Source: Rhizodiscina lignyota | Taxonomy: Eukaryota | Reading direction: 5' to 3' | Length of the DNA: 64,000 bases | Assembly (NCBI GenBank): GCA_010015805.1 | Contig: ML978124.1 | Span: 1,736,001 to 1,800,000 of the forward strand | Part shown: piece by piece, positions 12,008 through 61,222 of the stretch | Layout of the letters: every line of letters begins with the position of its first letter | How positions within the stretch are numbered: the first letter of the stretch is position 1 | Notes under the pieces: model-generated | Told to the model about the DNA's origin: nothing | Database searches by the model: none | What the model saw: the letters and a program-made list of their open reading frames with translations, nothing else | Translations under genes and position numbers: made by a program

Positions 12008-12780
12008 ATGGTAAAGGTGACGCCGGAGACATTCGAGACTCCTCTGATTTCGTGAGCTCCCTTAAAAATTATTCTTTCTCATCGAAGTCGATGGCCTAGC
12101 AGCATGCTGACTAGAGACAGGCCAATCGGGTTTAAAATAATCTATGTTAGAGTTGGGTATGCCGCAACGTCGTTCTCCGTCCACAAGTCGCTGCTCTGTC
12201 TCTCCTCTCATGAATTCTCGCGCGTATTGGACAGCGACTCGAGACAGCATGTAGTGCTTGAAGTAGCGGATGCCGAGGTGCGAGTGTTCAAGATGTACAT
12301 GGACTGGCTGTATCAAGGACAGCTACCAGCTCATAGAGTCGACATTCCCTTTGCGACGTCCTGGTTGCACCGTCTGCTCGACTTGTACATCTTTGCCACA
12401 GGGTATCGAATCTCGCAGCTTCAACGTGCCGTTATGGACCAGCTCGTAGGTAGTCGCAAGGTGCCTACTACGGATTCATCATCACAGCCTTCGGCGCTCT
12501 ACCAGCATCCTCGCCAGTGTGCAGATACTTAGTAGACATCTGGAGTTCAGGTGTTGATCCGCTGGACCGAATTTTTCCTCTGGAGATAGAACTTGAAAGC
12601 GAATTTCCAAAAGCGTTCCTCATTCAATTCTTCCGTGAGAAATCCCTGCATACGTGTTACACGGAGGGAAAGAAACCATGGGACGACTTGTGCAAGTATC
12701 ATGATCATAAAAATGAGGAGCAGAAACAAACGTGTCATGCTAAGCGCGGGCCTGCTGTCGCGCGAAAGGAGATGGCTTAG
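12008..12780 (+). pseudogene. BTB/POZ-domain gene (array copy 5) with a 1-nt frameshift
   Basis: Exon 1 MVKVTPETFETPLIS, phase-2 intron 12052-12120, BTB core. The frame changes at about 12468 (cctactacgg). The shifted frame reads YGFIITAFGALPASSPVCRYLVD..CKYHDHKNEEQKQTCHAKR, colinear with the paralogs. Could be a sequencing error. Confidence 0.75.
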
Positions 12781-21780: not shown

Positions 21781-24700
21781 ATGCCATCGGGTTTATTGTG
21801 CCTTCACAATGTAGATCAGGCCGAAGTATCAACTCGGCAGGACGACTTGGTCGAGTAAGGCTGTTTATCTTGTCTCACCATCGGCATTAAGTCTAATAAC
21901 GCGATAGTATCGTTGCTGTTCACAGCTTGAATGAAGACTCTGTTGAGGCCTGGACTGACGATGCCACTGGAATCAACTGGCTCCAAGACCTCCTGCCGAA
22001 GCAACTCAAAATCGCGAGGATTTTGACTTATGGCTACGATGCCTCGTATGAAACTTTCTTCGGAGCGCATGCTGCTTCAAACATCCAGAGGATCGCTCAT
22101 TCGTTCCTTCAGCAACTACAAGCAGATCGTCGTCTGGAAAAGGCACAGAAGCGCCCGATCATCTTTATTTGCCACGGTCTTGGTGGAGTCCTTGTTAAGA
22201 AGACCTTGATTTTTTCTTCGAGTCGAACAGCGAGCCATGTGCACCACCTGTGGAGTATCTTCTTATCGACATTCGCTATCTTATTTTTTGGAACGCCTCA
22301 CGACCGTGAGGACAAGTCGAACTGGTTCGTCCTTGAAGGTCATTCAGATGCCAAGCAACAACATGACCCTCGAAGCTATACATCATTTTCACATGATCTT
22401 AACTGCTTTCATGCTATCACAGACCAATTTCCGGCGATAGACAAGCGCTTCCGCATGTTCTTTTTCTGGGAAGAGATACGAACACAGACTACACGGTACG
22501 GTAGCAGAGCATATTTCATTGTCGATCAAACATCGGCTGTTCCGGAGATGGACAACATTGAGAAATCTGGAATCCATGCGACGCATTCTGGAATGATTAA
22601 ATTCAATTCCATCGATTCATCGAGCTATCGAACCGTGCTTGATGCCCTTACGAGATATTGTGAAGCTGCACCACGTTTCATTCCTCGCCAATGGGACGAT
22701 GCACTCCAGACGCTGGCACAAATTCGAGCGAGCGAGGCATACGGTCTCGGTGGAGTGGAGTTTGACGTACGAGTTGAACGTCCTCACAGAAGCCTTGAGA
22801 TTGACTTACAAAGAACGACAAATCGATATTTTTACCCCCCACAGGAGCCAACGCCCGGCTTCGTTGGGCGAGAAGAGATGATTTTAGCTCTCCATAGCGC
22901 TCTCTTCCTGCAGAATAGTGGGGGAAGTGCTCGTGGTCTTAGTAGGCGGAAGTCGTTCATTGTATACGGTATGGGAGGGTCTGGAAAGACTGAATTTTGC
23001 TCGAAATTCGCACAAGACTACAGAGATGAGTAAGTTTCTATGCATACGAGCACGAAATATGAGCACCTCTGACAGGTGGCATAGGTACTTTGCCGTTTTT
23101 ACGGTCAGGGCAGCGTCAGCCGAGACAATCAAAGAGTCTTACGCCATGATTGGAAAACTTGGCGGTCTTGAAGCTACTGAGAGCGCGGGAAGGCATTGGC
23201 TCTCTCAATTACGTGAACCGTGGCTACTTATTATTGATAATGCCGACGATCCTTCCTGCGAGCTGAGCAGTATATTTCCACAAGCTGATAGCGCACATAT
23301 CTTAGTGACAACTCGGAATCCAGAGTTTCGTCGCGATGGAACCGTTGGTAGCCTGGAGCTACAAGGTCTCAAAGAAGAGGATGCCCTCCAGCTATTGCTC
23401 ACAAGAGCGGACATATCGAGACCATGGGATGTCTCAACGAGGACTGCTGGCAATTTGATCACGAAGTCGCTCGGGTATCTTGCACTTGCGCTTATCCATG
23501 CTGGAAACTGCATATATCGCCGTATATGTAACTTGGGAGACTTCCTCACGTTACATTCGACATATAGAGCTCGACTACAACAACAGAGAGTATCGACGTT
23601 GGAGTCGCTTGATGACGAGGACATGGTCAAAGTCATTTACTCCACCTTCGATGTGTCTATGGAATTCCTAAGTAAGAAACGAACAGTTACCAGCCAGGAC
23701 GCGTCGGAGCTGCTGAAAATCGTCGGCTTCTACCATTTCGAGCGAATTCCGGTCGACATATTCACTCGTGCTGTGGTCAATCGAGAAAACAGCAAGCAAA
23801 GTACTTCGAGACTATCTATTACATCTAGGCTTTTGGGAGCTATCATCGGTCGATTTGAACCACCCAAGACATTGCCAGGTTTCCTGAAGGACACTGACGG
23901 TCGGCTAAATAAATTTAGAGTCAATCGTGCCATAAGAGAACTGCATTCTTTGTCATTAATCACGTATGATGGGAAAGACGACACTTTTTCCTTACATCCT
24001 TTGGTTCATGCCTGGGCTCGGGACGTCCTGCCAAGCCAGGAAAGGAAAATCTGGGCATATGTTGGCCTGAATACTCTTCTCGAATCCGTTTTGCTTCCTT
24101 CCGGGAAGGTCAGTGAATCAGACGGCGATTTCAACAGAGACATCTTACCACATCTCGACTCATGTCTTCAGGATTCCGGCCATCCACTGCCGGAAACTGC
24201 GATTACTACTGCAGGGTTACAGATGCGCCTCGCCAAGTTCTTCCAACCAACAACGCTTCTCATACTTCGAGATCAGACTCTGAACGCCGCCAAATGTGGG
24301 TACGTCTTCGCGGAACGAGGGGAGTTTGGGAAGGGAGCCATTCACCTCCGCATCGTCAAGGACACCCTAATCACGACGCTCGGTCGGGAGCACGAGAAGA
24401 CCATGACCGCGATGTTGGGATTAGCAGGGGTTTGCTGGGGTCTAGGCAGATTAGAGGAGGCGATTGAGCTTCAAAAAACGGTAGTAGAGATACGCTCGCG
24501 ACGTTGTGGACCCACGCACGAAGAGACACTAATGGCCATGGACCGGTTAGGAAGTTCGTACTGGCTGCACGGAAGATATCACGAAGCCCTTCAGCTCCAA
24601 GAAGCCACAACCGAAGGAATGAAAGCGACGCTCGGAATGGAGGACGCCAAAACGCTTGCAGCCCTGGATAATCTGGCTGTCACCCTGGGCTCATGGCATC

Positions 24701-25413
24701 GTTTTGAAGAAAGCCTACGCATTCATCGTAGAGTTCTCAAGTCTCGACAAGCTTCTCTAGGTCAGTCGCATGTCGATACACTTACAACAATGAACAACGT
24801 GGCTATGGCTTTGCTCGATCTCGGGCATTTAGATGAAGCAAAATCAATGATGACCGACGTACACTCCCAGCGACGAGCCCAGCTGGGCAAGGAGCATCCG
24901 TGGACATTGTGGGCGCTTTGTAATCTTGCGAAAGTGCACATCGAGATGGGATATCTTAGCGAAGCCGAGAAAATGCTTACCTGGGGAGTTGAAGCGGGAG
25001 AGAGGAGCTTAGGTAAAGATCATCTGGGCGTCCTTATGGGTAACGGCCAGCTCGCCCGTATATACGCACGGCAAGGACGACTGGAGGAGTCGGAGAAGCT
25101 CTCCGTATTGACCATTGGGCTCATCGAGAAGTCTCGTGGGATTGCTCATCCGGACACTGTCTACGGATTGTGGAAGCTGGCACAGCTATATGAGCTCAGA
25201 GATGAGCGGGAGATCGCGGTTCAGACTTGCCAGCTTGCTTTAGAGAGAGCCGACATGCGTATCACAAGGAGGCATCCTCTGGCCAAGAAGATAGAAGAAC
25301 TGCTCGGGCGTCTCGATGGTCAAAACAGAGACTTCGCAGAAACTGCAGAAGCTGGGGATGGGCAGAACGCATCAACCGCTCGGGCTCTCATTCCCCGCGG
25401 GCAGACCTGGTGA
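21781..25413 (+). CDS. Fungal NLR: degenerate SesB-like hydrolase domain + NB-ARC + TPR repeats
   Basis: ATG 21781, introns 21855-21907 and 23030-23084. N-domain D|IVAVHSL..ARILTYGYDA..PIIFICHGLGG..FFGTPH. P-loop VYGMGGSGKT, Walker B WLLIIDNADD, ILVTTRN, FSLHPLVHAW. C-terminal kinesin-light-chain-type TPRs (LGxxHxxTLxxMxNLA). Confidence 0.92.
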
Positions 25414-25879: not shown

Positions 25880-28168
25880 TTAAGCCAACGCGATAAGGAC
25901 TCGTTCAGGGCCTGCCTGCTGCCAAGCCAATTCTTGAATCTCCCCAATATTAATTCTGTATGCCAGGTCGCCTTGTCTTTCAATCTGGAGTACTGTCAAT
26001 ATAGCTTCAAAATGAAGTATTTGCCGCCTTCTGATTTGGATGAACTCCCATGTGCCGCAGTCATATCTGGTCTCTTCGGAGCGTTGCCGTATCATGGGAC
26101 CCATGGTTCCGATGGGAGTCCCAGAGCTGTTCCGGATCTCGTATTCGTATTTATCTGCGAACTTGGTATCACTTGGTTGAGCGGTCTTCCTGGCGATACT
26201 GAGAACTGCTCTTTCTGCCCAGAATAAGAGGATATGGCCGCCAGGTGTACGTGCTAAAGCGTTTTGGGAAAGACTGGGAAGCTCAGTTTTGACGTCTTGA
26301 AGTTGCACGCGGTCGTCGCCGTCCGTCGCCGGGACAGTAGGATTAACTGCCCTAATAGCCACACCTGTGTCTTCATTGGCGTGGACATAAACATCTATTG
26401 TGGCAGCCTCGTTGATTTCATCCAGGTGCTCGTTCGTAACTGACACCCAAGCTTCTCCAATCCAGCCCATCCACGACCAGCTGGGAAATTCGACTTGTTT
26501 GTCCAACTCGGTCATTGGCAACGTGCTTTTGGCTGACCTTCTGACTTGCCCAGATCTAGTGCTCCAAGCTAAGGCATCATTCAGTCTGCTCCGCGGAAGG
26601 CCCCATAGCCACTGTACTCCGAATACTCTTGTCATTTCCTGCAGTAGTCCTTCAAAGGCGTCATAAACATCGCCCGCGAAAGTGAAGTGTCGACGAGTAA
26701 AGCGCTGAACAGCCAGTCTGTATCTTCTCCAGAAGCGCTCGTGTGCGTCCTGCGGCTCCGTTTGATGCCGAGCAACTTCCAGTGATAGCTCCATGGCGGC
26801 GCTGTGGAATGGAAATAGTGTCGGTGGGCCATGCTCCATGTACGATTCCTCGCAGAATGTTGTCGTGTTGCATGAGAAGTAGACTTGCTCCGCGGTGAAC
26901 GTAATAACTCTGCGGGACAAGTATCTTTCCTGAAAGGTCCAGCCGCGCGTGTTCCATCTTGTTTCGTCGAGATAATGCACCGGAAACATGCCATTAACTG
27001 GGTTGATCGTCGTCATCAAAGACATGGCAGGTTTTCCCTCCTTTGCCTCCAGAACTGGGACCTCTGCTTGTTCGAACCAGCGGGTGCCCGGTCGCAGGCC
27101 AGGTAGTCCTGATTCTGCGCTTTCACCGGCGGCTGCCACGACGGTAGCAGAAGCACATCCGTAAATAGCGCCCATCGAACGAAGCTGAGTTTTCTTGTCG
27201 ATATCGTCATCCTGGATGATGCAAAGAGCATCAACCCATATGTATCGCAAGCCAAGCTGTCTAGTGAGGTCAATGGCATCCATAATTGTGCGTGAGGCCG
27301 GACGATCTCTCAGAGTCCCAACATCTCCCAGAGCAGTGAGGTTTCCTTTGCGGAGCGTGAGCTTTTGATTAGTCCCCCAAACATAGCTCAGAGCAATATA
27401 TTTCATGTCACCAAGATACACGTGTTTGAAGGATCGAATAGCCATCTCTTGCACGTCGATAAAGCGGATCAAGTCTGCCACAGCTTCCGCACCCATTCCT
27501 CTAGCAGAGTCTTTAGTGGAATTGCAAACAGCTCCATGATCAACCTCGCAAAGTCGAAGCCACTGTCGAAGCCACCCACAGTCGACGGTCAAAGGACGTC
27601 GGCGTCCGCCGAATATTGTCGGCTCCACTCCAGGACGTGTGTCGAGAAAGTCTACGGAGACATCTGCCTGGGTAGAGCCTGGACTGCAAGCTTGGAAACA
27701 GTATTGCAAGTATTGTTTGTGAAGATCCTCCGAATCTTGTACCTTGCCCTGCTCGTTTGTGATGAGGCTCAGTCTACAAACAATGCGAAACCGGTCACGA
27801 TCCGCTTCCTCCGGCGGGTAGAAGACCCCGTAGAAGGTATTTTCTGCTTGCACACTGATCTCGAGGCCGCTCATGCTCCGGCCCTCTTCCGTAAATGGCC
27901 CACGTTGACTGAGTATCTTCCATATCAGGTTGCACATACCGCAGGTCTCTCGTCGTGCCTTTATGCTGCCGAGCAAGCCCAGACTCAACGTCTTATGGCG
28001 ATGGTCATCCTGGGGGACAAGTTGAGGAAACCAGTGCTCGTAGGTCGTTTGATCATTTTTGCGGATGGCTTGAATATCTGACAGAGTAGGACATCTCAAG
28101 GTCTCAAATGGAATGAGTTGACAGAGTTCGCACAAGGCGACAGGTTTGGCTCGGCTTCTAAACGTCAT
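25880..28168 (-). CDS. HET-domain (heterokaryon incompatibility, TOL-like) protein
   Basis: Intronless. Motifs YIALSYVWG, TIMDAI..LGLRYIWVDALCIIQDD, MGAIYGCA, WNTRGWTFQERYLSRR and FPSWSWMGW. N-terminal CxxC pairs. Confidence 0.92.
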   Translation of the reverse strand: MTFRSRAKPVALCELCQLIPFETLRCPTLSDIQAIRKNDQTTYEHWFPQLVPQDDHRHKTLSLGLLGSIKARRETCGMCNLIWKILSQRGPFTEEGRSMSGLEISVQAENTFYGVFYPPEEADRDRFRIVCRLSLITNEQGKVQDSEDLHKQYLQYCFQACSPGSTQADVSVDFLDTRPGVEPTIFGGRRRPLTVDCGWLRQWLRLCEVDHGAVCNSTKDSARGMGAEAVADLIRFIDVQEMAIRSFKHVYLGDMKYIALSYVWGTNQKLTLRKGNLTALGDVGTLRDRPASRTIMDAIDLTRQLGLRYIWVDALCIIQDDDIDKKTQLRSMGAIYGCASATVVAAAGESAESGLPGLRPGTRWFEQAEVPVLEAKEGKPAMSLMTTINPVNGMFPVHYLDETRWNTRGWTFQERYLSRRVITFTAEQVYFSCNTTTFCEESYMEHGPPTLFPFHSAAMELSLEVARHQTEPQDAHERFWRRYRLAVQRFTRRHFTFAGDVYDAFEGLLQEMTRVFGVQWLWGLPRSRLNDALAWSTRSGQVRRSAKSTLPMTELDKQVEFPSWSWMGWIGEAWVSVTNEHLDEINEAATIDVYVHANEDTGVAIRAVNPTVPATDGDDRVQLQDVKTELPSLSQNALARTPGGHILLFWAERAVLSIARKTAQPSDTKFADKYEYEIRNSSGTPIGTMGPMIRQRSEETRYDCGTWEFIQIRRRQILHFEAILTVLQIERQGDLAYRINIGEIQELAWQQAGPERVLIALA

Positions 28169-28843
28169 CGATAATCGGGCGGACCAAGACACCTGTAATG
28201 GAACCTCGGTACGCCAAATTGAGTTCCAGCTTTACATCTGCCTAAAATTTTGCGACCTATTGGTATTATTGGAGGTCGGAAGTTGGAAGGCGGAAATAGA
28301 AGTGATATGAAAGCGTGAACAGGTCCTGAAGGCAACGAGGCAATCGGTTAGAAGGTCGTCCTTGACACCCAATGATCATGCCCCTGGCAGTTGAACAACA
28401 CGAGGCCCCAGTCCGCAGCAACCTATCGATCTCTTGTAGGGCAAAGTGACCGATGGAGGCGCAAACGGTCTGCACATGGTTCGACACTTCGAGTCTTACG
28501 AAAAAGGGCATAAACGCACCGATGTTAAGACGAATTTATGCATCATGGCCTGAAGCTAGTTTCCTGTCGTGTCACCTGCAGCACGGAACGGACCGATGAG
28601 GCTCTGATGGACCAATAATGTGAGGCTTCGGTTTCCACCCTGGTAAATAGGACCAACTGTTGACACTTGGCATGCGTTGGAAGGCTGAGAGGGCGGTCAT
28701 CCATCAGTAAATTATGCGAATTCAAGATATCGTGAATAGCTACGAGGGCCTTTATCAGCGAACAAGTACACGTGATGTTATGCAGGCCGACGCAATGACA
28801 TGCTGCTCTACCTACTCATGAATCTGAAGTTTATACTCACTCA

Positions 28844-33289: not shown

Positions 33290-34218
33290 TGTTATGGCCT
33301 GTCTATTGTCTCTTCATTCGAGTGCTCTGCATGCAATAGAACCGTGAATGACTCCTCGGCCAGGCCGCTACTGAGTGCGACGCAACGATTGTGGAAGCCT
33401 CGCAAGTGAACGAGCGGCAGTTCAGTGAAACGAGGCAACAAGTGCTGACGCTTCAATATGCGCATATAAATGAGAAAGTAGAGCGCTTCAAGCTGCGACA
33501 ACGAAGAGAAAGAAGAAATCTAGAAAGTACAAGAGCCCCGGCGAAACGATGTGCGCGAGACAGAAGCGGATGATGTGTGAATGAAGAGGGAAGAGTGGAG
33601 ATGGCTGGTTCGAAGAGTCGCAGACGGCGACCTAAAGCGGTCCCTCTGCGGCGGGAGGCGGGACGAGCTGGCGACGATCCTTCGATCTTCCAGATTGCTG
33701 GAGAGCTTGCTTACAGAGCAACCCAGCTTCGTGAAGATTCGATAATCACATGAAATACGGAAGTGAGGGTTTTTCGTACGTTAACGAATCATTTAAATAA
33801 TGCATGTAATAGACGGCTTGAGCTGATGACGGAGGATTCGTTGTCAGTGCCAGGCAACGCTTGGCACTCTCTGAGCGGCAGGGCAGGGTAGGATAGGTGG
33901 ATTTCCGCTTTCAGCGATGTGAAAAGCTCCGTACCTTTCAGAGACATCATCGAAAGCCACGGGGATCATTAGTGTGAATTTCTTATGAGCCACTCTTGTG
34001 GTCGGAATGTGTAACTTCCCCTTTTAAATAAACTGGAGAAACTTTGCCAAGAGTTAAGACGGTGGAGCGGAAATATCCGCCGGTGGCTGGTCTTGAATCT
34101 AGAAATTTTTGAGTGGGACATCAATCCTCTACTGCAGGACCAAACCCTCCACAATGGCAAATTGCTCACGATAATGGTTCTTTTCAACACTGCCTAGCAT
34201 ATTAGTTTCTCTATTGCA

Positions 34219-36456
34219 ATGGCACCAGCATTCTCTCCCCCAATCTCTACCGAGTCCCATACTCTCTCCGCCGAATCCTTCAAGCAACCTGGTGCCGCTC
34301 CACAGGACCTCCTCGCAGTCCTGAGAAAGAATCCAGATGTCCCACTGCAACCCTCCAAGGTTCTGCATGCAGCTGCCCTCACATTTGCCAAGCAATACCT
34401 CGACCCTCTAGCTTTTGGTGTCAGCAATACCCAATTATCTCGCCAGGCGGTGAATCGGCGGAAACGACGCCGGGCTGAGAGAGGCCAGGAGGAGGAAGAT
34501 GCGTTAAGGATTAAGAGAGTACATCTTGAAGGGTTTGGTGTTGATCAGATATGGGAACAAGCGCGGAAAGTTATCTATGCAGCAAGGAAAGAGGCCGAAG
34601 CTGCTGCTTCCAAAGATGAAGAGGGCGAGGACGAAGACATTGAGTCGGTAAATGGCGATGCCGAAGAGAAAGCAGATACAAATGGCACAAAGACGGTTCA
34701 CTTCGATGAAGATGGATTTGAAATCGGATCAGACGAGGATGTCGAAGAAGACGACATCGACGATGCCGAGGACGATGCCGAAATCTTTGAGGACGAAGAA
34801 GAAGAAGAAGCCTCAGAGGAGGAGTTTGATGAAGAGGCGGAGGATATGGCTTTAGAAGGTGTTGATGATTACGACGAAGACGACTACGATGAGGAGGAAG
34901 CTGGCCCAGCCCAAGAATTCGTCGAGGATCTGAACGGACTGAACGACGGCTTCTTCTCGATTGATGATTTCAACCGACAATCCGAATTTTTAGAACGACA
35001 AGATGAAAAGGGCGATCCAGACGACGGTGCTGCTAGCGATGAGGAAGAAGTAGATTGGGCGGCTGATCCATTAGCTGCTGTCGGATCGAAGCAACTGGGC
35101 ATTAACGGCAAACACAAAGACGAGGAGGAAAGCGACGATGAAGATGAAGACGGCCCAACGTTCGGTGACATGGACATCAACGTTCCTGACGGCGAGAGTG
35201 ATATGGAAGAAGACGACGAATTTGATGATGAAGAGATGGGAGACATGGGCGATCTAGGCAATACGAACGATGTTTTGTATGCCGATTTCTTCGCTCCACC
35301 TGCAAAGAAAGCAAACAAGAACAAGCGCGGTCGGCCGCATCCACATAATTTCCCACAGCAGGATTCAACCAAGTCGCGAGACTCAGCACCACACATCGAG
35401 GGTGCAGATGATGTGGAGCGCACAATGTCTGCAGTGCATCGTGACTTATTTTCAGAGTCAGACGAGGCCTCGGAGGAGGAGACCGAGCAACTCGACCCAG
35501 GTGATCCCAAATCTCGTCGATCAACACACGAACGTCGTCAAGCTGCTCTTGCAGAGGAGATCAGGAAGCTTGAAGCTGCAAACATTGCCAAGCGTGAATG
35601 GACGCTTGCAGGCGAGGCTCGAGCGGCAGACAGACCTTTAAATTCGCTTCTCGAGGAAGATCTAGAATTCGAGCGAATCGGGAAGCCTGTCCCAGTCATC
35701 ACCGCAGAAGTCAGCGAAGATATCGAGGCCATGATCAAGCGACGTATCATTGCGCGCGAGTTTGATGAGGTAATTCGCCGACGGCCGGAAAGCCTTGGTG
35801 GACCGGACGTTCGTCGTGGGAAGATGGACTTTGAACTCAGCGATCAGAAGAGCAAGCAAGGACTCGCGGAGTTGTACGAAGAGGAACATCTTCGACACAC
35901 TGATCCTGCGTATGTTGATGTCAAAGACGAGAAACTCAAGCAGGAGCACAAAGAGATCGAGGGGTTGTGGAAGGAGGTCAGTGGCAAGCTTGATGCGCTG
36001 AGTTCGTGGCATTATAAGCCGAAGCCCACAGCACCACAGCTAGAAGTACGGGTAGATGCGCCTGTGCTATCAATGGAAGATGCTAGGCCTACCGCTGGTG
36101 GCGAGGTTTCTGGTGCTAGTGCTCTGGCGCCTCAAGAAGTCTACAAGCCTGGGGAAGTTAAGACTGCGGGTGAGATCGTCACCAAGGGTGGTTTGCCTGT
36201 GAATCACGAGGAACTGTCAAGAGAGCAGAAGAAGAGACGGAGGAGAAGAGATAAGGAGAGGACGAGGAAGGCTGGTGGGGTGGTGAACGGAAACGCTGCG
36301 TCGAACAAAAAGGAACAAGAACGGAGCAATATAATCAGCGATTTGAAGAAAGGTAGCGTCAAGGTCATTGGAAAGAAGGGCGAGTTAAGAGATGTCGATG
36401 GAAGCAAGGCGAAGAGAGACCTGCGCGCCATTACTGGTGGTGCATTCAAGCTATAA
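34219..36456 (+). CDS. MPP10: U3 snoRNP protein Mpp10
   Basis: Acidic central region. Motifs GFGVDQIWEQ, LNDGFFSIDDFN, WTLAGEARAADRPLNSLLEEDLEFE, LDALSSWHYKPKP, MEDARP..LAPQEVY. Confidence 0.95.
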   Translation: MAPAFSPPISTESHTLSAESFKQPGAAPQDLLAVLRKNPDVPLQPSKVLHAAALTFAKQYLDPLAFGVSNTQLSRQAVNRRKRRRAERGQEEEDALRIKRVHLEGFGVDQIWEQARKVIYAARKEAEAAASKDEEGEDEDIESVNGDAEEKADTNGTKTVHFDEDGFEIGSDEDVEEDDIDDAEDDAEIFEDEEEEEASEEEFDEEAEDMALEGVDDYDEDDYDEEEAGPAQEFVEDLNGLNDGFFSIDDFNRQSEFLERQDEKGDPDDGAASDEEEVDWAADPLAAVGSKQLGINGKHKDEEESDDEDEDGPTFGDMDINVPDGESDMEEDDEFDDEEMGDMGDLGNTNDVLYADFFAPPAKKANKNKRGRPHPHNFPQQDSTKSRDSAPHIEGADDVERTMSAVHRDLFSESDEASEEETEQLDPGDPKSRRSTHERRQAALAEEIRKLEAANIAKREWTLAGEARAADRPLNSLLEEDLEFERIGKPVPVITAEVSEDIEAMIKRRIIAREFDEVIRRRPESLGGPDVRRGKMDFELSDQKSKQGLAELYEEEHLRHTDPAYVDVKDEKLKQEHKEIEGLWKEVSGKLDALSSWHYKPKPTAPQLEVRVDAPVLSMEDARPTAGGEVSGASALAPQEVYKPGEVKTAGEIVTKGGLPVNHEELSREQKKRRRRRDKERTRKAGGVVNGNAASNKKEQERSNIISDLKKGSVKVIGKKGELRDVDGSKAKRDLRAITGGAFKL

Positions 36457-36496: not shown

Positions 36497-38309
36497 TTAT
36501 TGCCGTCGCGATGCCCTTTTCGTCGTATCGATATACGAAGTGTACATCTTCAAATCTTGCACCTCCTCTGGAGGATCGTACACACTGGTCACGATGATAC
36601 TTGCAGATGCGTTTCCTCCCGCCCAACTGATGAGGGAAGGGAGCAATTGATGCACGAGATCCGCTTCTTCGTCCGCCTCACATTCTTCGATGCGATCGAT
36701 AACGATGAAGAGATTTGATATGCGAGACGCCAGTTGCTCGAAAATCCGCCATGTCTGCCTAAATGTCACGGCCTTTTGGAATCGCCAGGTGCTGCAGATC
36801 TCAGGCGCGTCATACGCTATCTCAGGATGTAGATCCAGTAGTTGGACGAGCAGTTTCCGGATCACAGTTAATGGTGTCAATGGAGCGTTGCCGCGCTGGT
36901 CGCAGAAAGCGAACAAGACGTTCGGAGTCTGTGGTTGCAGTGCGCAGATGATATCTGCAGAGAGCTCAGTTACCCAGCTGTCTTGATTGCCGGATCGTCC
37001 GCCAATCCACAGTAGAATATCTCGACCATCTTGCGACCAGTCGAAGAGATCTTCCAAGACGCCGTTATTCTCCCAGTGATCTTTCTGGGATAGGCGAAAT
37101 TGACGATGGACAATGGCTTTCAGCTCCTCTTCAAACTCCATATCATGCGGCTGCAGGATTTCTTGGAGTGACCTGGCGTGCTTGACCATCTCGAAGCGAA
37201 GGAACTCTTCAGGGCCATGTTAGCGTTACACCACATTTGCACCATAGAGCCACGTACTGCCAGTGTCGGAACTCAGTGTCTCGAGTTTCATGTTCATCAT
37301 CTCCATTGTTGTACTCAGCGCACTATGTTGGCTCTCAAAGTTCTCATACAGCTTTGCTACAACCAAGCCTGTATCGGTCATCATCTTCATCATGTCGGCG
37401 CTTTGGGCGATGTGTCCGGCTTCCTTTAGTGCGTGGAGCTTCGTTAGCTCCAGCTCAATGTCCTTAATATAATCACCAAACTTGTTCTCCGGATGGAGGA
37501 TAACATCTACGATTTTTCCTTTGCTGATCGTTAACATTTTCCAGCGTAATGGATTCGAGAACGGACGGCTCTCAGGTGAACATACTCAATTTTCCACCCC
37601 GATAATATGCTACGGCCTCGTCAAGCAGCCTTTGGATGCCAACGTAGATCTTCACCACAGCTTCCTTCATTCCATTTGTGGGAAACACGTTGCTATAAAA
37701 TTCCATCAGAGGGAGCTGTGACCCTAGAGTTTTGATGTACGAGAGCAAAGACTCTTCCCGCTCCTTCTTCGTAACGACGGCCTTATCCAAGTCAGCTTAG
37801 CTACGGGGGCACAGCACATTCGATTAAACGGACATTGAATAAAATGAAGAGCATTCCAAAGGTTACGGTATACTCCGGCGACTGAGGTATTAGCAGCATC
37901 ACAATGTTCGAGGTTCTGTCAGCGAACGTGCAGAACTCTTCCAGGAACTTGGATGATCGCTGCGCAAGCGCGGGTCGATGTGCTCGTTTCTCTTGCTCAT
38001 CTTGAATGTCTTTTAGCCTTTCGATGATAGTGTGTGGGCTGGTTGATTGTGATAGTAGCTTTGCCTCATCTGGTTCAAGTCTGAGTTGCTCGAGTCGTTT
38101 TCTGGAAACGGCGCATGCTTCTTTTGCTGGCGCGTAGTAGCTGGATTTGTATGAGCAACTTGGTCACTTTTGCGAAATGCCAAATCATATCTGGAGAGAA
38201 CTTACCAGAAATCTATCCCGCGACTATACCATGATGTGGCATTCGAGACTGAGTAGATTTCTGGATCTCTGAGATTGGAGAGTGCCTCATCGGTAGGGCG
38301 CCTCTGCAT
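36497..38309 (-). CDS. Helical N-terminal (DUF7708-like) + degenerate NACHT-like protein with no C-terminal sensor repeats
   Basis: Five exons with canonical splice signals (introns 38141-38205, 37782-37833, about 37520-37585 and about 37207-37258). Spliced protein MQRRPTDEAL..IPQSPEYTVTFGMLFILFN|AVV... The last exon has NACHT-like order: LLWIGGRSGNQDSWVT, VLFAFCD, VIRKLLVQLL, FIVIDRIEEC, IIVTS. Confidence 0.72.
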
Positions 38310-38750
38310 TTTGGGAACCTGGAGGAGTTTGACTCTGCTGTGAACGACTCGGAAAGACCACAATCAGACATTTCATGTCATCAGATGGTCAATGAGGGCT
38401 AGCCGATACGTTGGTTAATCTACTAATGCTTGGAATTGCATCTTAATTTCGTTCAGCCTCGCTCTGCTGCCTATCGTCTTCTAGGACTACCGGGACACAG
38501 CCTCCGCCACAAATTGCAGCCCTGCATCCATCCTGCGAGGAAAGAAATACGTTTCAGCTCCAAGTTCCAACTCATCAAGCGTTGGTATTCTTTTAATCCA
38601 TTATATGTGCGTGCGGACTAAACATTCCTCATTTCCTAATCTGTGATTTTTGCAGACCTTTCTTTCTGCCACATTCAGTCGTTTCGATGATGCGACGCGC
38701 ATAGCCACGAGTACTTTCGGCACCTCAGGACTCCCCGGACTCTCTCTAAC

Positions 38751-41374
38751 ATGTCACCAGTGGAATCGAAGCCTCCCAAAACTGTCTTAACTACTGTGCC
38801 CATAGATGACAGCAGCTCCGATAAAGGTGTGGCAACGCCCGAATCATGTCTTTTGGTGTGCCCAAGTTGCGATAGGCCGGTCCAAGTCCATGTTTCTGTA
38901 AACGTGACGGCAGGAAAAGCGGACGGCCGTCCGCCAGCAAGACCAGCGAGTCAGGCCGATGAGGAGTCGCTGCCAGAAAAGAGAGACGGAACAGAAAGTA
39001 ACGTCACTGGCGAGGCACCAGACCCCACGAATGGCTTGGATAAAGAGCCTGAAGGATCAGACGATGGTACCAGTACAACCACAGAGGAACCAAAACATAT
39101 TGGGTTCGTCCTTGAGTTACCAAACAAAAACTGGAGTCTTGTCGATGAGGATGACTGGGAGAAAGCGTATCAACTCACACCTGGAGAGATGAATGCAGTT
39201 GTTCTGAGGAAATATAGCGTTCCCGTCGCTCCAGGTGGATGCCCCGAGAGCAAATTGACGATTCTTTCACCCGAACTCCAGGAAGCCTTCCGTTCAGTCG
39301 TAAAGTACTATACCGACATCTCGGACGATGGCAGAGATATCCAAATAGCCACCCCTTACGAACCACTTTTCTTCTATTATGATCAAATTGTGGAGGCCGC
39401 AAAAGGCCGCTCCAACGGTGACGGGAGCGTTCCCGCTCGCGACTTGGACGGATTCGTTTACAGTTACACCAAGTGGATCAAGCCAGACCATGATAGGCTC
39501 AAGAAGATGATAGCAGAGGGGAACATAGATTACGATAATCTGTGGGCCCTATTCCGACCCGGCGATATCGTTTTCTCGTTGGACGTCTCCGGGCAGCCTC
39601 GACTATATATTATGGTAGCTTGCGAGTATCGACGACCTCTCCAAAACTCCAACTATCGCAACCCATGGGATAATACTAATTATCCTAGGCTCTGCGCCGA
39701 CCTTTGGTCTGTTGGTTGGGATTGTGTGAATCGACAGTTCGAGAGGCTGAGGATTACCAAGTGCATCAAGTCATTTGCGGGCCTATCCCCAATTTCATCT
39801 CTGCCATTCTATCCACTGAGCCACTACCGTAATGGATCTCAAGACGAGATTGACAAGTTACGCTGCGATCTCCAGACTGCAGGTTATCGGTGGAAAGAAC
39901 TCGTGTCAAACCCGCCTTCGTGCCAGCATTACAACGGGCCTGCTCAGGATGTTACCTCATTACAGACACAACTAGTATGGATCCTCAACCTTGATTAGCC
40001 ACTCTCACTAACCGATTCAGATTGATGAGCGCGTTGTTGTCGATGGAACGGCAACTGCTGCTAATGAAAGGAACAATCCAAGAAGCGGAGGCAATGGTGA
40101 CTACATTAGCAGGCCTCCGTCGCCGACCTTTGAACCGGCGCAGATTACAACTGGAGTTATAAGCGAATCGTCAATGTCTCGCCACCGCGGCGACTATTAT
40201 GAGACCCCAGTTGTTTCAATCAGCAACAATGACGAATATTCGCACTACGATGATCTCGATCCTGAGAAAGACTTCGAGGACCTGCAAGCGCAACTCTCGC
40301 CGCCTTCGATCAGGGCGCACGCGATCAAATCGCAAACCTGGTTCAATATTAGAGTCGCGAAAATCAGCGATCCTACGTGGGCGAAAGAGGCCCTTCAACA
40401 TCTCGTTCTTGCAGAGACTACGAAATCTATGCTCCTCGGGCTTGTGGAGAAGCACAAGAAGAACATGCAAGGTGGTCTGTCCGATGTCATACCGTCTAAG
40501 GGAAAAGTAATTGCCAAACCGGCGAGCAAGCTGTTTTGCACAAGGCTAATTCAAATTGCAGGGTCTGGCGGTTGTCCTTCATGGTCCCCCAGGAGTTGGC
40601 AAGACATTGACTGCAGAGACAATGGCCGAACACGCGCAGAAGCCGTTGCTGCCCATCAACGTTGGCGAATTGACTGCGGAGACGAACATGATCTTCCGCC
40701 TGAGAAAAATCTTTGAGACAGCTTCCAGATGGGATGCTGTGCTACTGCTCGACGAGGCGGACGTGCTCCTCGAGAAAAGGTCATATGAGGACCTCCGACG
40801 AAATGGGGTTGTATCAGTGTTCTTGCGTATGCTGGAATATTTCGAAGGTGCGAGGATTATTCTCTATTGTTTCATTTTCAATGCGTCTGGAAACTGTTCA
40901 GTTAGTCTTGGAACTTTATCATTAATTCTCATCCTTACAGGTATCATCTTCTTAACCACAAATCGGATCGAGACCATGGACGTAGCGTTCCAATCCCGGA
41001 TTCATATCGCAATCAAGTATCCGCACGTCACCCCCGAGTTCCGCCGACGTATCTGGGCAAATTTCATTGAGCGGCTAGACGAAAGAGAAGCCCAAGCTAA
41101 ACGAGAGCTCATAGAGCATCTAGATGACATCCAAGAATGGGAACTCAATGGCCGTCAAATACGAAATGTGTTATCCATAGCCGAATCGATTGCCCTGAAT
41201 AAGGAACGCAGGAGAGGCGCACTCCGTTATAGACACGTCGAGGACGTCGCGAACTCGACATTGGATTTCCAGCATTTCTTTGAGGATTCTTTGAAAGAGA
41301 AGAAGAGCCAGGTTGGAGAGATCTCCGGTAGGGCATTCCAAGAACGAAGAGGCAGGAATTTTCCGATGAGATAG
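38751..41374 (+). CDS. Fungal AAA+ ATPase (DUF7025-type N-terminal region)
   Basis: PYEPLFFYY, IDYDNLWALFRPGDIV, ISSLPFYPL, IDERVVVD. Walker A LHGPPGVGKTLTAE, Walker B VLLLDEADV, FLRMLEYFEG|IIFLTTNR, DVAFQSRIH, LNGRQIRN. Introns 39975-40020, 40507-40561 and 40848-40940. Confidence 0.92.
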
Positions 41375-60436: not shown

Positions 60437-61222
60437 ATGGCGTCTCACGACACTGAGAAGAAAGAATGCCCACTAATCGCTAAGATGGTACCTACAAAGT
60501 CTGCTTCACCTATGAACCACACAATGTGCTACTAACGCAACAATAATAGTGCAATGTACGACGCGATCGTCACGGTCGAGGTTACGAACAGATCAGAGAC
60601 TAAGAGTTTCTTCCTCCACGAAGGCCTGCTCTGTCACAACTCCTCATACTTCAAGGCGGCCATTAATGGGGGCTTCGCTGAGAGCAGCAAGCGTGTGATT
60701 CCACTCAGCCGCACAAGTATCAACGTCATGGAAGCTTTCCAGATGTGGCTCTACAATGGGAAGCTGTTCGGTGGGGCAGAGGATATGGGTTACACGTTCT
60801 TGTTCCAAATATGGGTCTTTGGAGATATGCTTGGTGTTCCGGGCCTTCAAAACGCAGCGATAGATTCAGTACACAAGAAGATTTCGACAGGTTGGTCAAT
60901 CCCGTCCCACAGGATCGACTACGTCTATCAGAATACACCATCAGGTTCAGCGCTGCGCAAGTATGTGGTGGATATGGTCGCCTATACTTTTTCCGACCTT
61001 ACTACTTGGATCACACATTGTGAAACACTCAAGTGCGACATCCCTCAACAGTTCCTTTGGGATCTCCTTCGGATTAGAAGCAAGTCCAGTGAGTTCAAGA
61101 CGCTAGGCAAGGAGGAATACGCAAAAATCGACACTTGCAAGTACCACATCCACGCGCCACCGACCACCGGACAGCGCGAAGTAGATCTCGCGAGAGCTAA
61201 ACAATCCTCAACTGCCTCGTAA
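60437..61222 (+). CDS. BTB/POZ-domain protein (dispersed, more distant relative of the array)
   Basis: FFLHEGLLCHNSSYFKAAINGGFAES, FQMWLYNG, WVFGDMLG..LQNAAID, CKYHIH. Probable short first exon from ATG 60437 with acceptor at 60549; the donor is weak, so the start could be 60554. Confidence 0.8.

Follow-up and report, generated by a model that had tools for sequence, protein, structure and literature searches.

A P-loop-deficient NACHT-like protein and its AAA+ neighbor: a conserved gene pair of filamentous ascomycetes

Background

Canonical fungal NOD-like receptors (NLRs) combine a Goodbye-like (DUF7708) or other N-terminal domain with a NACHT- or NPHP3_N-type nucleotide-binding core and with C-terminal ANK, TPR or WD40 repeats. 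Described here is a gene pair within a 64,000-nucleotide stretch of the Rhizodiscina lignyota genome (GenBank assembly GCA_010015805.1, contig ML978124.1, positions 1,736,001 to 1,800,000 of the forward strand; the whole stretch is termed here the window, and coordinates refer to it). One gene (36497..38309, minus strand) encodes a 525-residue protein of the same N-terminal superfamily and the same NOD family that has lost its canonical P-loop and has no sensor (termed here the dead NOD); the other (38751..41374, plus strand) encodes an 809-residue ATPase of DUF7025-AAA-AAA_lid_13 architecture (termed here the AAA protein). The two diverge from a 441-base intergenic region (38310..38750), delimited by the two start codons and presumed to serve as a shared promoter. 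Their linkage outlasts other synteny in distantly related fungi, so that the pair is probably one unit. The favored reading, to which a rough probability of 0.45 is assigned, is that the two genes constitute a conserved, co-inherited, NLR-derived module of filamentous ascomycetes, in which the AAA+ partner supplies a nucleotide switch in trans and controls the assembly of Goodbye-like domains.

Canonical fungal NLRs are the closest relatives of the dead NOD: both the LLW..G strand preceding the P-loop and the hhhhD..[DE]EC frame of Walker B align with it column for column. The dead NOD differs from them in that aspartate replaces the P-loop lysine, in that arginine rather than glycine or alanine follows the Walker B aspartate, in the absence of a helical lid, winged helix and repeats, and in having a conserved AAA+ neighbor.

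Torsin and its partners LAP1 and LULL1 provide a precedent in which an active AAA+ protein works together with a protein that has retained its P-loop fold and is unable to bind nucleotide; Torsin has no arginine finger of its own and borrows that of its partner. The families involved are unrelated to those considered here, and the present AAA protein retains an arginine (within the motif SRI). In plants, the NLR pairs RGA5/RGA4 and RRS1/RPS4 are likewise encoded head to head, with one partner not reliant on its own P-loop and the other a working NTPase. Such sensor-helper pairs resemble the present locus in being divergently transcribed across a short shared intergenic region (for the concept see the available portion of PMC12258605), and differ from it in that the working partner here is a classical AAA+ protein with a DUF7025 N-domain instead of an NLR and in that the dead partner has neither a sensor nor an integrated decoy. 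Pairs of NLRs in head-to-head arrangement are reported to be rare in Sordariales, accounting for 13 of 225 two-NLR clusters in the portion of the same survey that was available.

Adjacent genes for an NLR-type protein and a functional partner also characterize fungal NLR/effector clusters such as nwd2/het-S (available portion of PMC4344463), from which the present pair differs in that no amyloid motif or sensor is evident and in that the partner is an ATPase. The AAA protein itself belongs, by Pfam architecture, to the DUF7025-AAA-AAA_lid_13 family of Ascomycota, which forms a large unnamed family in the Atlas. In pairs of the nwd2/het-S type, the two proteins communicate by short amyloid motifs, and the NLR is intact and repeat-bearing. 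The searched literature contained neither a DUF7025 family member with a described function nor any mention of the names and accessions DUF7025, DUF7708, PF22942, PF23232, PF24809 and AAA_lid_13. Recurrent non-canonical P-loops have been noted in one fungal NLR survey (supplementary table S1 of PMC4986451, as described in its available portion). Literature searches aimed at such a pair yielded general NLR surveys only, the available portions of which contain no description of a dead-NACHT/AAA+ pair, members of which may be listed in the supplementary tables of PMC4986451 and PMC12258605.

Results

Adjacency of the two genes across lineages

To collect related loci, three peptide patterns of the dead NOD, a choice blind to the AAA gene, were scanned against metagenome contigs, which yielded 21 loci; the AAA gene was sought in these by tblastn using AAA orthologues, and a locus was considered informative when its contig extended 1.5 kb or more upstream of the match. 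The AAA gene adjoins the dead-NOD gene in all 12 informative loci, which represent seven lineages at 90% nucleotide identity (L009 and L011 being close relatives). The arrangement is head to head, with the AAA gene upstream and on the opposite strand, in 11 of them (L001, L002, L003, L004, L006, L009, L011, L012, L013, L014 and L016); in the twelfth, L018 (3018-5739), which harbors a more distant dead-NOD relative (39% identity), the AAA gene lies downstream and tail to tail, so that adjacency there occurs without a shared promoter. The remaining nine loci have less than 1 kb upstream of the match and are uninformative as to linkage; at the edge of one such contig, L019, the 5' end of an AAA gene is seen, with 89% identity to that of L004.

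Among named genomes, Cercophora sp. LCS_1 carries the two genes under adjacent locus tags (OQA88_3452 for the dead NOD and OQA88_3451 for the AAA protein), and in both Immersiella caudata and Cercophora newfieldiana the dead-NOD and AAA proteins are encoded on equally sized contigs. Conversely, of the 12 homologues of the AAA N-domain, which were found independently of the partner, five tie to a dead-NOD locus. An earlier note on this stretch, prepared from its letters and reading frames, had held that its proposal of a two-component system would fail if homologues of the two genes were unlinked elsewhere; instead they are linked wherever the metagenome loci are informative and in Cercophora sp. 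LCS_1. As a side observation, I. caudata has two dead-NOD paralogues (P0006 and P0008) on different contigs, and the searches recovered only a single AAA partner from this species.

The surrounding genes are not similarly conserved: the Mpp10 and hydrolase genes that flank the pair in the window occur in none of the 21 loci, and the Pfam content of the flanks varies. General conserved synteny was rejected on these grounds as the cause of the linkage. The AAA neighbors themselves form a single orthologous set, as is indicated by exon-by-exon matches and by the finding of only 12 N-domain homologues. Pairwise distances among dead-NOD proteins correlate with those among their AAA neighbors (r = 0.85, a value reached in 1 of 5000 permutations), which is expected from co-inheritance and is no proof of co-evolution.

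These findings bear on the simplest alternative, namely, that the two genes are neighbors only, sharing a promoter region or chromatin neighborhood while serving unrelated processes. Some chance adjacency could occur, given that DUF7025-AAA genes form a large ascomycete family, and any interaction or co-expression of the pair is presumptive. Against this stands an adjacency found in the window, in Cercophora and in every informative locus, where all other neighbors differ, which survives the change of orientation in L018 and which involves one orthologous set of AAA genes, so that mere proximity seems rather unlikely. Intergenic distances in the related loci range from 313 to 1485 bases. A search of seven intergenic regions for a shared promoter motif revealed no convincing k-mer: for k = 6, 7 and 8, only one k-mer passed each threshold, as compared with an average of 0.1-0.3 and a maximum of 2-4 in shuffled sequences.

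A NACHT-like core without a canonical P-loop

The N-terminal half of the dead NOD contains a DUF7708 (Goodbye-like) domain (residues 99-240; 37406..37950, minus strand, a span holding two introns), which scores above the Pfam cut-off (E = 3.8e-32) and which is all-helical in a structural model; the nearest Atlas clusters of this half are DUF7708, Goodbye and NACHT_N, with scores of 0.93-0.94. It is followed by an NPHP3_N/NACHT-type P-loop core (residues 345-497; 36584..37042, minus strand; E = 5.4e-14), which matches profile positions 14-163 of 164 with 53.1 bits against a cut-off of 24.8. The AlphaFold2 model, which was built on 22 homologues, has a mean predicted local distance difference test score (pLDDT) of 72.8, with values of 80-94 over most of residues 280-520; its N-terminal half is entirely helical, and its core is of the alpha/beta type with five strands (354-360, 385-390, 455-460, 491-497 and 510-516). 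When the core (about residues 298-517) was compared with 48,161 chains using VIA-align, the matches included Avs3 (Z = 12.7; root-mean-square deviation 3.6 over 187 aligned residues), Cdc6 (Z = 12.0), the TPR-STAND protein 6mfv (Z = 10.9), MalT (Z = 10.3), CED-4 (Z = 9.7), NRC2 (Z = 9.6) and Apaf-1 (Z = 9.4); a Foldseek search with the whole model found nothing at E <= 1e-3, only generic P-loop ATPases. The modeled core thus appears to adopt a STAND/initiator-type AAA+ P-loop fold, such that it may be called NACHT-like by profile and a P-loop NTPase core by fold. Profile and fold searches thereby agree with the suggestion, made from the sequence alone, that this protein is NACHT-related.

Also borne out is the suggestion that the protein ends directly after its NTPase core: the chain stops at residue 525, nine residues past the last core strand. 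Neither the model nor Pfam reveals a helical lid, winged helix or C-terminal repeats, and the same holds for the 22 homologues. Moreover, the convergent Mpp10 gene (34198-36456, plus strand; Pfam E = 1.1e-99) ends only 40 bases from the dead-NOD stop codon, which leaves no room for repeats after the core. Searches with the dead-NOD protein gave no match in PADLOC and, in NCBIfam, only a chance-level match to RlmH (E = 0.0045), which scored 16.8 bits where the cut-off is 242. At its N-terminus (38280-38309, minus strand) the protein bears a conserved [RK][RKQ]x[ST]xxxL[DE]xL motif--RRPT in the window and RRST in many homologues--which resembles a basophilic kinase site and may be one.

The remnant of Walker A is LLWIGGRSGNQDSWVT (36968..37015, minus strand), its register being set by a profile alignment with canonical NLRs. 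In this alignment GGRSGNQDS lies opposite the canonical GxPGxGK[ST], with lysine changed to aspartate and the preceding glycine to glutamine, and the canonical GxxxxGK[ST] is absent from the protein. The Walker B-like motif, in contrast, is retained as LFIVIDRIEECEA (36674..36712, minus strand), in which, by alignment with relatives, an arginine immediately follows the aspartate; its acidic residues (D460 and E463-E464, within IVIDRIEEC) align with the canonical D..DE. Both parts of the earlier description of this site, a destroyed Walker A and a surviving Walker B-like motif, accordingly hold, the more precise form of the first being the replacement of GxxGxGK[ST] by GGxSGNQD[ST].

A search for homologues among proteins longer than 420 residues found 23, of which 22 are 471-572 residues long and contain both domains. 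These 22 span five classes of Pezizomycotina (Dothideo-, Sordario-, Leotio-, Eurotio- and Geoglossomycetes) and share the replacement motif, GGxSGNQD[ST]W, nearly without variation: W356, G358, S361, G362 and W367 are invariant in their alignment, and Q364, D365 and the Walker B residues DR are at least 90% conserved. Likewise, none of the 21 metagenome loci has GK[ST], and all except L016 and L017 preserve the replacement motif intact. One further homologue, P0015 of Diaporthe ilicicola (1128 residues), is annotated with glycoside hydrolase family 3 domains and is probably a merged gene model.

The AAA+ partner

The N-terminal part of the AAA protein includes the DUF7025 domain (39498..39827, plus strand; Pfam E = 1.1e-17) within a larger domain that folds confidently: in the model of the orthologue P0026, whose overall mean pLDDT is 58, most of residues 95-365 have values of about 85-96. 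A fold search with the whole-protein model gave, for this N-domain, weak matches to chromo/PWWP-like barrels (Z = 5.2-5.4). The AAA module that follows (Pfam E = 7e-16) has its catalytic motifs, whose residues we assigned presumptively from general features of AAA+ proteins, at 40583..41002 (plus strand), a span crossed by the intron 40848-40940: Walker A, GPPGVGKT (40583-40606); a shortened pore loop 1 region (40664-40696), as aligned to NVL and VAT; Walker B, LLLDEADV (40742-40765); sensor 1, TTNR (40949-40966); and the second-region arginine, QSRI (40985-41002). The Walker motifs, the sensor 1 asparagine and this arginine are also conserved in orthologues. An AAA_lid_13 domain, the fungal AAA+ lid, comes last (41033..41290, plus strand; Pfam E = 8.6e-11). 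The earlier characterization of this AAA+ module as complete is therefore apt for the catalytic motifs and lid and not for pore loop 1, which reads GELTAET--NMIF; compared with VAT and NVL it is short by two residues, and it offers no aromatic residue where VAT has KYyG/KWvG. The aromatic-hydrophobic-glycine pattern of threading unfoldases is absent from it, and orthologues have the same shortened, non-aromatic loop.

The solved sequences closest to the module are those of NVL, VAT and p97, mostly their D1-type rings; fold searches matched p97, Rix7, ATAD1/Msp1, FtsH and Rpt subunits, and Foldseek matches were to generic classical AAA proteins. PADLOC and NCBIfam searches gave only weak matches to IetA, TRIP13, RFC and Pan, far under the NCBIfam cut-offs. 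Near its N-terminus, the AAA protein contains a CxxC (38859-38873, plus strand) kept in most orthologues, within poorly conserved surroundings that are predicted to be disordered.

These properties allow a second alternative to be evaluated, namely, that the two proteins are a substrate and its unfoldase, the AAA+ hexamer threading, disassembling or degrading dead-NOD oligomers as a negative regulator. Such a role would suit the affinity of the module to classical-clade unfoldases and segregases (p97, VAT, Rpt and Msp1), and a conserved basic C-terminal tail, which follows YIDT in the dead-NOD family, could act as a handle. AAA+ translocases, however, grip their substrates through the aromatic residue of pore loop 1, where both the window's protein and its orthologues have a shorter, non-aromatic loop, and the module is most similar to D1-type rings, whose role lies mostly in assembly and not in threading. 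Substrate unfolding thus appears doubtful, and with it that form of the earlier note's proposal that the AAA+ protein remodels its partner; the missing aromatic suggests, as far as can be judged from sequence, that the AAA+ protein acts instead as an oligomeric switch or platform and not as a processive unfoldase.

Selective constraint on the pair

The ratio of nonsynonymous to synonymous substitution rates (dN/dS) for the NOD exon was 0.05 in the pair L009/L011 and 0.14, 0.15 and 0.23 in three other pairs. Judged from these values, both genes are under strong purifying selection; taken together with the retention of the replacement motif in homologues, this indicates that the dead P-loop is a maintained character and not the result of decay.

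The same values bear on a third alternative, raised in the earlier note: an allorecognition (het-type) or toxin/antidote pair, in which the AAA+ protein would neutralize, in matching genotypes, a toxin or incompatibility factor represented by the dead NTPase. Several features have this flavor: the genes are tightly linked and divergently transcribed, cell-death domains are among the relatives of the superfamily that includes the dead-NOD N-domain, the window also contains a HET-domain gene (25883-28231) and NLR-like genes, and in L014 a HET gene lies about 7 kb away. These fungi have many HET and NLR genes, however, so that their proximity means little. Moreover, the dN/dS values give no signal of diversifying selection, the key motifs are nearly invariant over five classes, and contigs of the same lineage from different samples are 98.7-99.8% identical, the pair being no different in this respect from its flanks--though this last argument is weak, inasmuch as there are three to four contigs per lineage. 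An allorecognition or toxin/antidote function thus seems unlikely. Finally, the notion that the dead-NOD gene is an NLR pseudogene in decay, next to which an intact gene of no relation to it happens to lie, as the missing Walker A lysine and C-terminal half might lead one to suppose of a truncated relic, has virtually no standing, being refuted by an open frame that matches an annotated 525-residue protein, by the same length and replacement motif in 22 homologues and by the low dN/dS.

A wider clade of P-loop-dead relatives

A search of representative sequence clusters returned 219 clusters at E <= 1e-3, the best 150 of which were examined; all counts of clusters given here refer to these 150. 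The P-loop was aligned in 125, among which 92 lack GK and 33 have canonical P-loops. Those without GK are all at most 645 residues long, many being fragments, as compared with up to 1372 residues for the canonical ones. The residue that follows the Walker B aspartate divides the two sets as well: it is arginine in 76 of the 83 non-canonical matches for which the column is aligned, and glycine or alanine in 31 of the 33 canonical ones. The joint loss of the lysine and gain of an arginine beside the Walker B aspartate suggests a pocket that, to go by the sequences, may be filled by the protein itself. All five of the distant, full-length, non-canonical members that were tested contain both DUF7708 and NPHP3_N.

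Gene models and other genes in the window

The dead-NOD gene has five exons on the minus strand (38206-38309, 37834-38140, 37586-37781, 37258-37518 and 36497-37206), with its start codon at 38309-38307 and its stop codon at 36499-36497. Its splice sites were read and mapped, and the spliced product corresponds to the annotated protein P0001 (NA57DRAFT_74446, 525 residues), to which the last exon is 100% identical and with which the junction residues agree. The AAA gene has four exons on the plus strand (38751-39974, 40021-40506, 40562-40847 and 40941-41374), beginning with an ATG at 38751; its splice sites were read from the sequence, and the model is backed by exon-by-exon matches to the neighboring gene in related loci. 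Reading frames were obtained under the standard code and introns were placed by eye, so that splicing rests on the annotated model and on homology. The coordinates and anatomy given for both genes in the earlier note, including the intergenic region, were right. Three of the four dead-NOD introns (introns 2, 3 and 4) end in AAG; within intron 3 (37517-37586) the in-frame AAG is preceded, at a distance of five bases, by a CAG whose use would change the reading frame, and the annotated protein takes the AAG.

Elsewhere, the window is rich in genes of the non-self-recognition type. An open reading frame (ORF) at 2439-3749 (plus strand) encodes a PigL_N (HeLo-like) domain and a canonical NPHP3_N domain (E = 1.3e-39), that is, the N-terminal half of an ordinary NLR, and heads towards a run of N at 4802-5386. 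A TPR_10/TPR_12-rich ORF (21900-25410, plus strand), resembling the C-terminal part of an NLR, adjoins the HET-domain gene mentioned above (minus strand; E = 1.3e-32). Six ORFs encode BTB/POZ domains (within 6609-12529 and at 60536-61219), five of which are clustered within 6 kb.

Discussion

The favored reading--an NLR-derived module of two proteins--can be put in mechanistic terms as follows. The dead NOD, which has no sensor of its own, would have lost the ability to change its assembly state by means of nucleotide; this role would fall to the AAA+ partner, acting as an ATP-dependent switch in trans. The AAA+ protein would bind the dead NOD, most likely through the AAA N-domain, and would set whether the Goodbye-like domains stay apart or come together. 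A four-helix-bundle core is common to Goodbye-like domains and the membrane-attacking HeLo/MLKL domains (available portion of PMC9815663), which makes a regulated membrane or cell-death-type response a likely output, by analogy with canonical fungal NLRs.

A more specific version of this module would be a split NLR: a large, nucleotide-blind, sensor-less Goodbye-NACHT clade of Pezizomycotina that has handed switching over to a separate AAA+ protein. Here sensing would fall to the DUF7025 N-domain, which evolves fast, while the AAA+ ring would serve as an ATP-driven assembly platform and the dead NOD as an adaptor that clusters an MLKL-related death domain. Little weight can be given to this version; if true, it would amount to a signalosome for immunity or cell death in eukaryotes that combines two distinct lineages of P-loop proteins.

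Several considerations weigh against the module as proposed. Regarding linkage, the neighboring gene is visible for only 3 of the 22 named dead-NOD homologues and for 5 of the 12 AAA homologues, and the window's own AAA protein is absent from both protein-search outputs, the searched databases being incomplete for the AAA gene. The L018 locus has no shared promoter and in L011 about 1.5 kb separates the genes, so that co-regulation through a single promoter is not obligatory. Regarding constraint, an in-frame stop interrupts the codons of the P-loop remnant in L016 (L016:9440-9442; of the L012-L016 lineage) and a frameshift occurs there in L017; these may reflect a dispensable gene with natural null alleles, or else assembly errors. 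The AAA N-domain also evolves faster than the dead NOD (between-lineage p-distances of 0.54-0.71 versus 0.35-0.57), which fits a sensor and fits weak constraint equally well. Regarding mechanism, both physical contact between the two proteins and their co-expression are presumed. Prediction of a complex between dead-NOD residues 30-525 and residues 110-408 of AAA exon 1, with alignments unused, gave a score of 0.00 in two runs, a result that speaks neither for nor against contact. The cell-death output, finally, is proposed by analogy, the function of Goodbye-like domains not being established in the available portions of the fungal NLR literature.

Conclusions

Surveys of fungal NLRs define these proteins by the presence of a nucleotide-binding domain together with repeats, and one orthogroup without systematic C-terminal repeats was excluded on this account (available portion of PMC12258605). 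Such a definition would place a repeat-less, P-loop-dead NACHT clade outside the census: at least 92 sequence clusters of these proteins would escape it. That one protein of this clade keeps to a single AAA+ partner in different classes of fungi provides a concrete two-gene system, one that bears on three questions: how a NOD may work without nucleotide, what role the Goodbye-like domain plays and what purpose the DUF7025-AAA family serves. The pair would thereby represent a fungal counterpart to the sensor-helper logic of plant NLRs, with a different kind of helper.

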